NCBI GenBank assembly: GCA_017457005.1
Contig: JAFTII010000009.1
Location: 3,392 to 67,391, forward strand
Length of the DNA: 64,000 bases
Origin: Alphaproteobacteria bacterium
GTDB lineage: Bacteria > Pseudomonadota > Alphaproteobacteria > RF32 > CAG-239
Direction of reading: 5' to 3'
Shown here one piece after another: positions 52,885 to 54,673 of this stretch; positions within the stretch are counted from its first letter, which is position 1; each line of letters opens with the position of its first letter. Under the pieces are notes generated by a model, which searched no databases, was not told where the DNA came from, and saw nothing but the letters and a program-made list of their open reading frames with translations. Made by a program: the position numbers and the translations under genes.

Positions 52885-52959
52885 GCCGCTGTAGCTCAGT
52901 GGTAGAGCACGTCATTGGTAATGACGGGGTCGCAAGTCCGATTCTTGCCAGCGGCACCA
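52885..52959 (+). tRNA. tRNA-Thr (anticodon GGU), CCA encoded, non-canonical T loop TCCGATT
   Basis: GCCGCTG TA GCTC AGTGGTA GAGC A CGTCA TTGGTAA TGACG GGGTC GCAAG TCCGATT CTTGC CAGCGGC A CCA. Confidence 0.85.
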
Positions 52960-52961
52960 TT

Positions 52962-52990
52962 AAAAAGACCTCCCTTGTGGAGGTTTTTTT
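52962..52990 (+). terminator. Terminator after tRNA-Thr
   Basis: aaaaagacctcc cttgt ggaggttttttt. Confidence 0.75.
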
Positions 52991-53151
52991 AATGGTATTT
53001 GCCAATGGCTGGGATCGGGCTTGCGAAGCAACGTCCGGAGTGGATAGTTGGTGAAAATAAGTGCAAAACTTTAGCGAATAGCTTAGTTTTGTACGATGTT
53101 TGAACCTTACGACACGAGGAGGACCCGCGAATAAATGAGCGGGAGTACCCT

Positions 53152-53169
53152 TTCTTGCCAGCGGCACCA
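53152..53169 (+). repeat. Direct repeat b: 18-nt copy of the tRNA-Thr 3' end
   Basis: ttcttgccagcggcacca is identical to 52942-52959. Confidence 0.9.
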
Positions 53170-53280
53170 TTTCATAAAACCGCCTTATCACAGGCGGTTT
53201 TTGTTATGTAAATCAAGTTTCTTGCAAAGTCCGATTGTTTCGTTTCCCTAAATAACAATTTTTCATAACTATCGGACTTT
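53170..53280 (+). repeat. Conserved post-repeat module, copy 1 (terminator hairpin + T-arm-like box + 9-bp inverted repeat)
   Basis: ataaaaccgcc..aggcggtttttgtt, gcaaagtccgattgtttcgtt, caatttttcat, aactatcggactt. Inverted repeat aagtccgat (53227-53235) / atcggactt (53271-53279). Alignable to 54674-54785. Confidence 0.7.
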
Positions 53281-53337
53281 GGACCTAAAAGCTAAAAATC
53301 AATCATTTTGAAAAATCCAATCCCTGTCCTATAAAAA

Positions 53338-54570
53338 TTATCTTCCTTTATTGATTTTGGACTGATTGGTTTTAGATTGTATTCCCCTAACATTTCCAGC
53401 TCTTAAGTAGCATTTACCTAAAACTTTACTTAATGAAGCTATATTATCAATTCTACATTCTAAAGATGGATTAGTAATAGGATATAAAACATCTCCCCTC
53501 ATTTGTTTTGTTCTACCATTTGGTGAAGTTATATATTCTTGAAAAGTCCCATCATCTGCGTACAAACGAATCAGATGTTCATCAGCATTTAATGAACAAC
53601 TGGCCAACAATTTATTATCTTTTTTATATTCCATAATGTCATTGCCAAATTTGTTTTTATAAATAGTTATATTGTTAGCGTTAGGCATGATTTCTAAACC
53701 CTTAACATCAACAGATATCTCATTATTTAAGGAATTTGATTGCTGAAATGATGGTATAATATCATTAATATACAAATCTACTCCTTCCCCCCGTGGAACC
53801 AAATTTTTGCTATGAATAAATCTTTCTTGATGTGTAGCTTTTAGATAATTTAATGCATTTGATACATAATTTTGAACTTCTTGATATGTGTATTTTGTCG
53901 ATAAATCTTCAAAAAGTTTATTAGCCCAAGGATTTTTTTCATAATCTTTACCTAAATATTTAGCACCACATTTTTCTGCTAAAAAAATATGACAGGCCAG
54001 TGAGGACAATTGAGTATCATTTATTTCGTTAAATATTAAATTTCTATTTAGAGAAGGAACACCAGCATGACCATAATAAGAGAAAGCAGAATCTTTATTT
54101 TGCTCATACCAATTATCTTTTACGCCTTCAAATCTCATTCCTATATTATTGAAAACATGCATATCTTCAGGAAATTTTACTCCACCTTGCGGAAAATCTT
54201 TTTTATACCTATCACCAAATTGATTATTTAGTTGTTTTGCAATAAATTGTGCTTTATCATATTCTCCGATATATATAGTAAAAACTTTCCCTCCGTCTCC
54301 ACCATTTCCCATCTTAAAACTAACTTCATTATCCATGAGAAATTTTGCAGTATCTTTGATTATAGGATCTGAAACGGTTTTATTATCCTGATCAAGAAAA
54401 ACATGTAATTTCCAAACATGATTATCATCTTTACCTGTTTGAAATTCCATATCTTTAGTATCGGGTGAAAGTTGCAAAAAATCATCAAATGAATGTACGT
54501 AATTTATATGAGGCATATCAACTATTCCTTTATCTAAAGTAATTATAGCAGACATAACCATTAAATTCAA
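53338..54570 (-). CDS. Hypothetical 410-aa protein with OspF/SpvC-like phosphothreonine-lyase motif arrangement in the N-terminal half
   Basis: WKLHVFL, then FKMG 30 residues after the His, then GKVFTIYIG. The likely start is MPHINYV at 54516, after AGGA. No signal peptide. Confidence 0.45.
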   Translation of the reverse strand: MNLMVMSAIITLDKGIVDMPHINYVHSFDDFLQLSPDTKDMEFQTGKDDNHVWKLHVFLDQDNKTVSDPIIKDTAKFLMDNEVSFKMGNGGDGGKVFTIYIGEYDKAQFIAKQLNNQFGDRYKKDFPQGGVKFPEDMHVFNNIGMRFEGVKDNWYEQNKDSAFSYYGHAGVPSLNRNLIFNEINDTQLSSLACHIFLAEKCGAKYLGKDYEKNPWANKLFEDLSTKYTYQEVQNYVSNALNYLKATHQERFIHSKNLVPRGEGVDLYINDIIPSFQQSNSLNNEISVDVKGLEIMPNANNITIYKNKFGNDIMEYKKDNKLLASCSLNADEHLIRLYADDGTFQEYITSPNGRTKQMRGDVLYPITNPSLECRIDNIASLSKVLGKCYLRAGNVRGIQSKTNQSKINKGR

Positions 54571-54648
54571 TTAATAATCTTCTCCAACAAGAGCTTATAT
54601 AAATAACTCTATTTTATAAGCTAATTGTCTAAAATCATCATAATTTTC

Positions 54649-54673
54649 AGTCCGATTCTTGCCAGCGGCACCA
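54649..54673 (+). repeat. Direct repeat c: 25-nt copy of the tRNA-Thr 3' end
   Basis: agtccgattcttgccagcggcacca is identical to 52935-52959. Confidence 0.9.

Follow-up and report, generated by a model that had tools for sequence, protein, structure and literature searches.

Small gene cassettes form a strain-variable array downstream of tRNA-Thr(GGU) in uncultured gut and rumen Alphaproteobacteria

The attC sites of integrons are imperfect palindromes (R''-L''/L'-R') that fold as single-stranded DNA and carry a GTTRRRY core, and the Xer/dif sites of IMEX are 28 bp long, with 11-bp XerC and XerD arms around a 6-bp spacer. For tyrosine integrases that target tRNA genes, the T loop, the anticodon loop and the T/acceptor junction are recognised crossover subsites, and the Islander approach to tRNA-gene islands and their tandem arrays requires an integrase for every array member (PMC4383910). 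CIMEs retain attL and attR without integration or transfer genes, lie in tandem at tRNA 3' ends and are presumed to be moved by the integrase of another element; descriptions present them as ICEs or IMEs that have decayed, mostly several kb in length and few per site (PMC5704250). The tycheposons of Prochlorococcus form flexible islands at particular tRNAs, remodelled by repeated integration and scattered with partial tRNAs and remnants, and besides an integrase and replication modules they carry cargo that can reach 10 kb or more (bioRxiv 10.1101/2020.12.28.424599).

In the window (the whole 64-kb stretch of DNA analysed here), the 3' end of a tRNA-Thr(GGU) gene recurs downstream of the intact gene in direct orientation, as in islands at tRNA genes. 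There are exactly two occurrences of the 25-mer AGTCCGATTCTTGCCAGCGGCACCA, at 52935-52959 and 54649-54673, and three of the 18 nt at its end, TTCTTGCCAGCGGCACCA, the extra copy lying at 53152-53169; all copies are on the plus strand, and 100 shuffles of the sequence gave 0 matches. An earlier note on this DNA had reported these repeats, and every one of its matches proved exact. The 25-mer starts 2 nt ahead of the T loop and the 18-mer within it, that is, at one of the recognised crossover subsites (PMC4383910). The three core copies are 210 bp and then 1,504 bp apart; as the note had described, the shorter interval contains no credible ORF and the longer one a single gene of 407-410 aa on the minus strand (53338-54561/54570). 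The array, which the note had ended at the third copy, reaches 57132 and comprises at least three gene cassettes and one non-coding unit:

52678-52875, plus strand: upstream pseudo-tRNA block, containing a direct repeat, missing from L092, L096 and L098
52885-52959, plus strand: tRNA-Thr(GGU), the array anchor (ARAGORN and Rfam), with core copy 1 as its final 25 nt (52935-52959)
52956-52996, plus strand: palindromic hairpin ACCATTAAAAAG...CTTTTTTAATGGT, an inverted repeat that takes in the ACCA end of the tRNA
52997-53151, plus strand: GC-rich non-coding unit, with homologues in 8 loci
53152-53169, plus strand: core copy 2, just an 18-nt right half, which bounds the 1.5-kb cassette on its left
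53176-53201, plus strand: terminator-like hairpin at the cassette start
53228-53278, no strand assigned: inverted repeat AGTCCGAT-N35-ATCGGACT ('ext' element), conserved downstream of tRNA-Thr in other species
53338-54561, minus strand: cargo gene for a 407-aa orphan protein, no Pfam domain
54601-54673, plus strand: junction site (nhmmer, 48.6 bits), with conserved arm (54601-54648) and core copy 3 (54649-54673)
54680-54783, plus strand: terminator-like hairpin (54680-54705) and degenerate inverted repeat, with arms AATCCGAT (54732-54739) and ATCAGACT (54776-54783)
54828-55700, plus strand: cargo gene of the next cassette, 276-290 aa, no Pfam domain
55717-55792, plus strand: junction site with conserved arm and non-tRNA core ACTCTGATATTTGCATAACATCAACCGTTA, the left boundary of the Fic cassette
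55780-57063, no strand assigned: Fic cassette, missing from L092, with a 91-aa ORF (55955-56230, plus), a terminator-like hairpin (56243-56268) and the Fic gene (56326-56967, minus)
57054-57132, plus strand: last junction site, with conserved arm and core ACTCTGATATTTGCATACTATTACGCACTA

Core chromosome resumes after the last junction, with an IMPase gene at 57311. Each repeat copy is followed by a hairpin, and copies 2 and 3 share about 130 nt of further similarity downstream, made up of the terminator hairpin and the inverted repeat (79.5% identity over 132 nt by blastn; ungapped blocks of 91% over 54 nt and 83% over 47 nt). The junction sites at 55717-55792 and 57054-57132 lack the tRNA-type middle and bound the 290-aa and Fic cassettes. 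The 276-290-aa gene has the commoner orientation, on the same strand as the site and with its stop directly ahead of it. Upstream of the array, the tRNA leader and the first 20 nt of the tRNA are duplicated as a direct repeat (52678-52716 and 52866-52904); the pseudo-tRNA block runs from this leader and partial tRNA through 107 nt of foreign sequence to anticodon-arm-like and acceptor-like remnants. A AGTCCGAT-like match at 33910 lies inside a coding region and is regarded as chance. No recombinase domain was found in the 1,504-bp interval or in the 40 window ORFs scanned against Pfam, with about 14 other large ORFs outside that scan, and to this extent the note's statement that the 64 kb hold no integrase, excisionase or transposase stands.

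The note had suggested a search of relatives for empty sites and alternative cargo, and both were found. In L092, a strain 99.3% identical to the window, exactly the 1,504 bp that separate copies 2 and 3 are missing, so that a precise empty site remains; L092 and L096 both lack this interval and carry other cargo. The Fic cassette (1,340 bp) is likewise precisely missing from L092, and both empty-site junctions are clean hybrids of the left and right flanks. The 410-aa cassette reappears in L099, 99% identical from CACCA to AGTCCGAT, where it is flanked by different, non-tRNA cores and different neighbours. The two contexts have only about 8 and 5 nt in common at the two cassette boundaries, and this flank homology is too scant for RecA-type exchange. 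A third allele of the same species, L095, has an island with a 582-aa tyrosine integrase directly at this tRNA. A search for synteny in species-representative genomes through MurA returned only relatives at 62% identity or less.

These alleles fit one of the two readings that the note had offered, a cassette-like array served by a recombinase encoded elsewhere, better than the other, a single eroded island. Its count of two tandem insertions stands for the 1.5-kb cassette, which is absent in L092, but not for the 0.2-kb unit. The latter is neither a gene cassette nor a second cargo insertion: it is a GC-rich non-coding element that recurs elsewhere and is present in both strains. On its left it repeats the last ~34 nt of the tRNA in inverted orientation, its homologues lie in L106, L111, L113, L118, L156, L168, L129 and L085, and the hairpin type seen at 52956-52996 also precedes the unit in the other loci that carry it. 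ARAGORN and Rfam (E <= 1) returned only tRNAs for this unit and the upstream block, which set aside tmRNA and other known RNAs. The fold of the single RNA sequence scored z = -4.1, and RNAalifold on six homologues gave no covariation support for a conserved structure.

The junctions belong to a conserved family. The full site consists of an arm of ~50 nt, a core in which AGTCCGAT and GCACCA enclose a variable middle, and a hairpin with an inverted repeat of AGTCCGAT after it. An nhmmer profile of this family matched 40 sites in 26 independent low-GC metagenome loci; within the window it found three sites only, all inside the array. The sites are co-oriented in all 12 multi-site loci, at a spacing of 710-1,995 bp. 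Wherever tRNA-Thr(GGU) was in view (10 of 10 loci), the array lies downstream of it in the same orientation, with murA as the conserved upstream neighbour, and the same architecture recurs in many species, also at tRNA-Leu and tRNA-Glu. The tRNA-derived site of the note describes the anchor but not most of the junctions, which form a dedicated site family and have only AGTCCGAT and GCACCA in common with the tRNA. The 50-nt arm is missing from the first junction, and the hairpin and inverted repeat from the last, which matches the B-O-P' and P-O-B' ends expected of a tandem array. Whole cores are 25, 26 or 30 nt long, or >100 nt where the GC-rich unit occupies the core, and their middles measure 11-12 nt, 16-17 nt, or about 80 nt or more where that unit fills them. 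When the window is compared with L099, the core middle on either side of the cassette tracks the context and not the cassette itself. The cargo of the arrays (GNAT, NUDIX, GDSL lipase, beta-lactamase fold, methyltransferases, restriction-modification, HNH, Fic and orphan proteins) resembles, in its diverse mix, that of integron cassettes. Known plasmids and phages gave no match to the junction module, and the viral contigs scanned gave 0 matches.

Compared with the described systems, the locus resembles tRNA-gene islands, tandem arrays included, in its intact tRNA with direct copies of a displaced 3' fragment, in repeats that start at the T-loop region and in successive units at one tRNA (PMC4383910), and one same-species allele (L095) has an integrase directly beside the tRNA. 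The units here, however, are only 0.2-1.5 kb long, hold one or two genes and lack an integrase of their own, and the internal junctions are a dedicated conserved site instead of plain tRNA fragments. As in CIMEs and site-specific accretion, recombinase-less units lie in tandem at a tRNA 3' end (PMC5704250), and the window has what defines a CIME, namely repeats that bound units in which no recombinase domain was found; yet a uniform family of single-gene cassettes with conserved arms occurs here in many species, and no ICE or IME remnants were seen. Anchoring at a tRNA, partial tRNAs and element remnants recall tycheposons (bioRxiv 10.1101/2020.12.28.424599), whose hallmarks, a tyrosine recombinase and replication genes within the element, were not found among the scanned window ORFs and the array cargo; the elements here are mini-cassettes with a conserved composite junction. 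The likeness to integrons, sedentary chromosomal integrons and CALIN lies in co-oriented conserved sites that alternate with single ORFs at roughly 1-kb spacing, in diverse, strain-variable accessory cargo and in array members without a recombinase. Unlike integrons, the arrays are anchored at a tRNA 3' end, carry genes in either orientation and consist of cassettes that each start with their own hairpin and inverted repeat. No IntI integrase with attI was found among the scanned window ORFs or at the array loci, no GTTRRRY boxes are visible in the junction alignment, and attC-like folding was rejected for four sites, one of them on both strands (z from -0.67 to +0.45). By eye, the reverse complement GGTGCGCGATA-CTTTGCG-ATTATCGGACT looks dif-like, but the length variation of the core middle does not fit dif.

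On this evidence, we consider it fairly probable that miniature mobile cassettes without a recombinase form a chromosomal array whose primary attachment site is the tRNA-Thr(GGU) 3' end, and that they are served in trans, most likely by a DUF6538 tyrosine integrase. In a cassette closed into a circle, the ends would together make an attP-like site of roughly 250 bp, with the ~50-nt arm, the core of T-loop AGTCCGAT, variable middle and GCACCA, then the hairpin and the AGTCCGAT inverted repeat. Cassettes would enter, either at the tRNA end or at a junction already present, and be lost again through site-specific recombination in the core, which would leave co-oriented repeats, and the tRNA would stay intact because the incoming site brings a copy of its 3' end. 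We infer the site-specific nature of these events, the position of the crossover and the enzyme responsible from the alleles and sites described above. The variable core middle is unlike the fixed 6-8-bp overlap of tyrosine recombinases, and a single fixed crossover point fails to explain why the middle tracks the context.

The DUF6538 family is the best candidate for the recombinase, with a small serine recombinase as its rival. A DUF6538 integrase adjoins the tRNA-Thr(GGU) 3' end in L095 and in L172/L173, and in L169, at a different tRNA, one abuts a module of tRNA fragment, hairpin and inverted repeat whose repeat motif matches the T loop of that tRNA. These contacts suggest a role for tyrosine integrases in the arrays. 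Among the integrase islands L095, L170 and L172-L176 the conserved 50-nt arm was not found, and the downstream module was seen in L169 only; 421 ORFs beside other arrays included no homologue of the L095 integrase, and the far end of the L172 island showed no attR within 10 kb. The integrase contigs L174-L176 are too short or not at a tRNA. Two unrelated-looking cases aside, no recombinase was found linked to any of the arrays.

An account that keeps the cassette array but assigns its recombination to a small serine recombinase, one of resolvase/invertase type, appears improbable to us. Under it, the AGTCCGATA motifs would be half-sites and AGTCCGATAAT the putative binding target; resolution between co-oriented junctions would delete cassettes, and inverted motifs could flip segments. 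A Resolvase+HTH_7 protein of 196-199 aa does lie inside the arrays of two independent species (L128/L166 and L134, 59% identical), and in L134 the unit that contains it has the hairpin/inverted-repeat module at one end and a junction site at the opposite end. The Tn3/gamma-delta half-site consensus is TGTCYNNTA, which AGTCCGATA fits, and the motif resembles the gamma-delta res half-site TGTCCGATATTT; each junction has three or four such motifs, direct and inverted, like a multi-site res, whose subsites tolerate variable half-site spacing. The inversion of two of the three window cargo genes relative to the commoner orientation would also be accommodated. Yet only 3 of about 26 loci contain the enzyme, the proteins closest to it bear the name of Mpi-family invertases, and it is so distant from gamma-delta resolvase and Gin (E 3e-12 to 3e-6) that the likeness of the motif may be coincidental. 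When inverted, the right half of the core matches the left half poorly, and recombination of the tRNA's own motif with an inverted one would destroy the tRNA. As a general partner of the arrays the enzyme was rejected, since one close homologue, P0214, sits in restriction-modification/integrase islands without junction sites.

We also give little credence to the view that no dedicated recombinase is involved and that the junctions are regulatory units (terminator, promoter and operator) with cassettes gained, lost and rearranged between these dispersed repeats through homologous recombination or replication slippage. Terminator-like scores were obtained for the hairpins, minus-strand promoter-like hexamers overlap the cores (CTGGCA-17-TATGAT at 54665-54637; TTGCGA-16-TATGAT in main-type sites), and no linked recombinase was found; both deletions fall between 25-26-nt identical direct repeats, recombination between which could also yield the two empty-site alleles. 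The few nucleotides that L099 and the window have in common are, however, too short for RecA-dependent exchange, and the sites show strict co-orientation and keep to one tRNA in different species instead of lying dispersed upstream of a regulon, the window having none outside the array. The null case of the earlier note, in which the tRNA end was duplicated locally long ago and is now just decaying, could draw on the extended similarity of the flanks of copies 2 and 3, but we regard it as extremely unlikely. It foresaw the identical arrangement in all relatives, which the L092/L096, L099 and L095 alleles exclude; the precise cassette absences and the re-use in L099 refute it, with presence/absence and cargo polymorphism among strains at least 99% identical, and the recurrence of the architecture across species and at other tRNAs also speaks against it.

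Beyond the cassette array served in trans, a broader reading is possible but doubtful: an integron-like gene-capture system of a new type in uncultured low-GC gut and rumen Alphaproteobacteria, based on ~250-bp sites derived from the tRNA T arm and one genome-encoded recombinase. Such a system may stockpile single-gene cassettes behind tRNA-Thr(GGU), and also behind tRNA-Leu and tRNA-Glu. In it the GC-rich unit, whose end is a copy of the local tRNA tail, may have a role of its own, as an attI-like platform site or as a structured RNA or DNA cofactor. Annotation pipelines that demand an integrase for each island, such as the Islander filter, would overlook arrays of this kind, and the site consensus offers a practical probe with which to harvest cassettes from metagenomes. 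If our reading is correct, these poorly known Alphaproteobacteria would hold at one tRNA a compact, strain-variable store of accessory genes, including Fic proteins, restriction-modification systems, acetyltransferases, hydrolases and many orphans, in uniform cassettes that are mobile without a recombinase of their own. This would represent a second route to integron-like gene shuffling, made from the toolkit of tRNA integrases.

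The tRNA-Thr(GGU) gene (ARAGORN; Rfam 70.9 bits) is followed by direct repeats of its own 3' end. As the earlier note had reported, the terminal 25 nt recur exactly (copy 3) and the terminal 18 nt once more (copy 2), all on the + strand, and shuffled sequences gave zero matches to these repeats. Its account of the intervals also held: the 210 bp between copies 1 and 2 contain no credible ORF, and the interval of 1,504 bp carries a single minus-strand gene (407-410 aa) in which no Pfam domain was found. It had overlooked about 130 nt shared beyond copies 2 and 3 (blastn: 79.5% identity over 132 nt, with 83-91% in ungapped blocks), consisting of a terminator-like hairpin with an inverted repeat, AGTCCGAT-N35-ATCGGACT, after it. 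It had also overlooked two additional sites in which the 48 nt preceding copy 3 and the outer portions of the core have homologues, while the middle differs. Given these extra sites and the shared hairpin and inverted repeat, the locus reads as a multi-cassette array extending from the tRNA to site 5:

Upstream neighbours: grpE, mscL, murA and a META-domain gene
52885-52959, + strand: tRNA-Thr(GGU), with copy 1 at 52935-52959
52997-53151: GC-rich non-coding 0.2-kb unit, following a hairpin
53152-53169, + strand: core 2 (copy 2), then the 410-aa cassette
54649-54673, + strand: core of site 3 (copy 3), then a 290-aa cassette
55717-55792: site 4
55780-57063: 91-aa and Fic cassette
57054-57132: site 5, then core chromosome
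Downstream neighbours: inositol monophosphatase, rpoA and ribosomal protein genes

The chromosomal context is ordinary and window GC is ~35%. Against species-representative genomes MurA reaches no more than 62% identity, with matches only in Alphaproteobacteria, and the locus's proteins have their homologues in metagenomes of human gut and rumen. The source is accordingly an alphaproteobacterium of low GC that is uncultured. The motif AGTCCGAT occurs five times in the window (0.95 expected), four times within array junction elements and once inside the Fic coding sequence. A promoter-like pair on the minus strand, CTGGCA-17-TATGAT (54637-54665), overlaps core copy 3 and is directed into the 410-aa gene; main-type sites carry, on the same strand, TTGCGA-16-TATGAT followed by a short conserved ORF (MMNISSWSISWS...).

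The tRNA itself has an uncommon T loop, GUCCGAU (52934-52945), in that position 55, nearly always U, is C. Cassette sites share this loop as the AGTCCGAT motif. The loop is also present in tRNA-Thr(GGU) of nine other metagenome contigs (L106, L111, L118, L133, L136, L152, L166, L168 and L172), that is, in every species examined, whereas the canonical GUUCGAG is found in tRNA-Thr(CGU) of L168.

The earlier note had set exchangeable cargo against an arrangement identical in all relatives. Contigs encoding the identical META protein, mapped by blastn, fall into three alleles, and both empty-site and alternative-cargo forms exist (L092/L096, L095, L099), which rules out the uniform arrangement that would have refuted the note. 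L091 and L093 are of the window type. L092/L096, with flanks 99.3% identical to the window, lack exactly the interval between copies 2 and 3, the left flank of copy 2 joining the right flank of copy 3; they also lack the Fic cassette, a single hybrid site remaining. The same contigs carry a different 381-aa gene, an orphan (L092 8178-9323) where the window has just 36 nt (~54787-54822); since its boundary has no junction site, this difference arose by some other route. L095 is identical to the window as far as the tRNA end, where an island follows that opens with DUF6626 and a protein of 582 aa (DUF6538 + Phage_integrase). L099 has the 410-aa cassette too, 99% identical over the stretch CACCA to AGTCCGAT, but the cores on its two sides, AGTCCGATAATCGCAAAGTATCGCGCACCA and AGTCCGATAATTGCATAGTATTGCGTACCA, are not of the tRNA type, and a Fic-like cassette adjoins it. 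Three further contigs (L094, L097, L098) end at or just past the tRNA, which is what a heterogeneous locus does to assemblers, as these break contigs at such loci.

In L081 (9400-11200) the 410-aa cargo has a homologue in the rpsJ-tuf interval, accompanied by an RHH_4 gene and a motif like the inverted repeat; in L085 (5981-11176) a homologue closes a cassette-like run that follows tRNA-Glu(CUC). The gene family therefore moves between loci. Upstream of the tRNA, a 188-bp block (52678-52875) repeats the tRNA leader and first 20 nt of the tRNA, followed by 107 nt of foreign sequence and an anticodon-arm-like and acceptor-end remnant (gcacgtcattggccaatgacgcagcacca). It is bordered by 29-39-nt direct repeats, and the strain with 99.3% identity (L092/L096/L098) does not have it; sequence 3' of tRNA-Thr in L168 is homologous to part of its insert.

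Scanning metagenomes with ATCATAANNNNNASTCYGATNNTYGC yielded 64 loci, ~25 of which show the full signature, all from gut or rumen and at 30-42% GC. An nhmmer profile detected 40 sites in 26 independent loci; 12 loci hold two or three sites, co-oriented within each locus and spaced 710-1,995 bp apart. Wherever tRNA-Thr(GGU) itself was in view (10/10 loci), the sites lie downstream of it and share its orientation, and murA is its conserved neighbour; tRNA-Leu(UAA) in L129 and tRNA-Glu(CUC) in L085 are followed by the same layout. The commoner cassette runs GCACCA, hairpin, inverted repeat, ORF in the tRNA direction, ~50-nt arm and AGTCCGAT, the ORF stopping at the beginning of the arm. Of the 40 sites, 20 have an ORF directly upstream on their own strand and 11 have one on the other strand, while 9 have none there. 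Cargo includes YgjV, HNH, D12 methylase with DUF6996/6997/7226, IceA with a methylase, SAM methyltransferase, a beta-lactamase-fold protein, GDSL lipase, NUDIX, two GNATs, VanX/Y peptidase, DUF218, Fic and orphans. No single-stranded hairpin folding of the sites was found, and the junction module had no match in plasmid and phage collections.

The 0.2-kb unit is present in both strains of the source species, and its homologues follow tRNA-Thr (L111, L118, L168) or cassette sites (L106, L113, L156); in L118 one separates the AGTCCG of a site from its right half-core. A palindromic hairpin that takes in the preceding ACCA always precedes the unit, which includes an inverted copy of the T-arm region and ends in a right half-core, in most cases a copy of the local tRNA's final 18-19 nt. 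Its RNA fold has z = -4.1, with no Rfam match and no covariation support for RNA structure among homologues. In our reading it is no cargo cassette but either a non-coding mini-element or an extended version of the site. In the window, the tRNA end, hairpin and inverted ~34-nt tRNA tail (TGGTatTTGCCaaTGGCtgGGATCGGgCTTGCGA) form a long imperfect palindrome (52956-53040) that opens the unit; its L106 homologue has matching base changes on both arms.

The layout fits integrative elements arranged in tandem, in which the first junction would be the tRNA plus P', internal junctions P, core and P' (P and P' being cassette-borne flanks), and the last P, core and host flank. The repeats begin in the tRNA T loop, a recognised crossover subsite (PMC4383910). 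Integration and excision by a trans-acting tyrosine recombinase is favoured, with a DUF6538 integrase as candidate, because such integrases are abundant in the clade, adjoin the 3' end of tRNA-Thr(GGU) in L095 and L172/L173, and in L169 lie directly beside a module of tRNA fragment, hairpin and inverted repeat, the motif of which, GGTTCGAT, corresponds to the T loop of the tRNA concerned. Against it, the integrase islands lack the 50-nt arm and the core middle differs in length; moreover, between the window and L099 the middle goes with context on both cassette sides, which one fixed crossover point leaves unexplained. The L169 module (2700-3140) has, on one strand, the integrase and DUF6626, then the tRNA 3' fragment (ATTCCGGCCAGGGGTACCA), hairpin and inverted repeat with arms GGTTCGAT/ATCGAACT, the motif tracking the T loop of the targeted tRNA; gcccgattg motifs are repeated beside the integrase.

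Homologous recombination between repeats could account for both cassette deletions, but it leaves the L099 context unexplained. A rival driver is a small serine recombinase, found inside arrays of two species; AGTCCGATA resembles a gamma-delta res half-site. However, this enzyme is missing from most loci and only distantly related to solved enzymes, and a close homologue is located elsewhere, without array sites. Its genes (Resolvase + HTH_7) lie inside or at the end of arrays (L128 2038-2625, L166 2968-3555, L134 1069-1665), and in L134 a Fic-wHTH gene occupies the same cassette. NCBI gives one homologue (P0248) the name Mpi-family master DNA invertase.

No recombinase was linked to the arrays, and a limited literature search found no paper describing such arrays. 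The general kind is already known from tRNA-anchored islands, tandem accretion, att-bounded elements that lack an integrase and islands remodelled by tycheposons, and the integrase-less units of the window are comparable to CIMEs (PMC5704250). What is unusual here is the uniformity of the cassettes, mostly single-gene and with a conserved composite junction, and the occurrence of integron-like arrays across a clade, accompanied by a recurrent non-coding unit.
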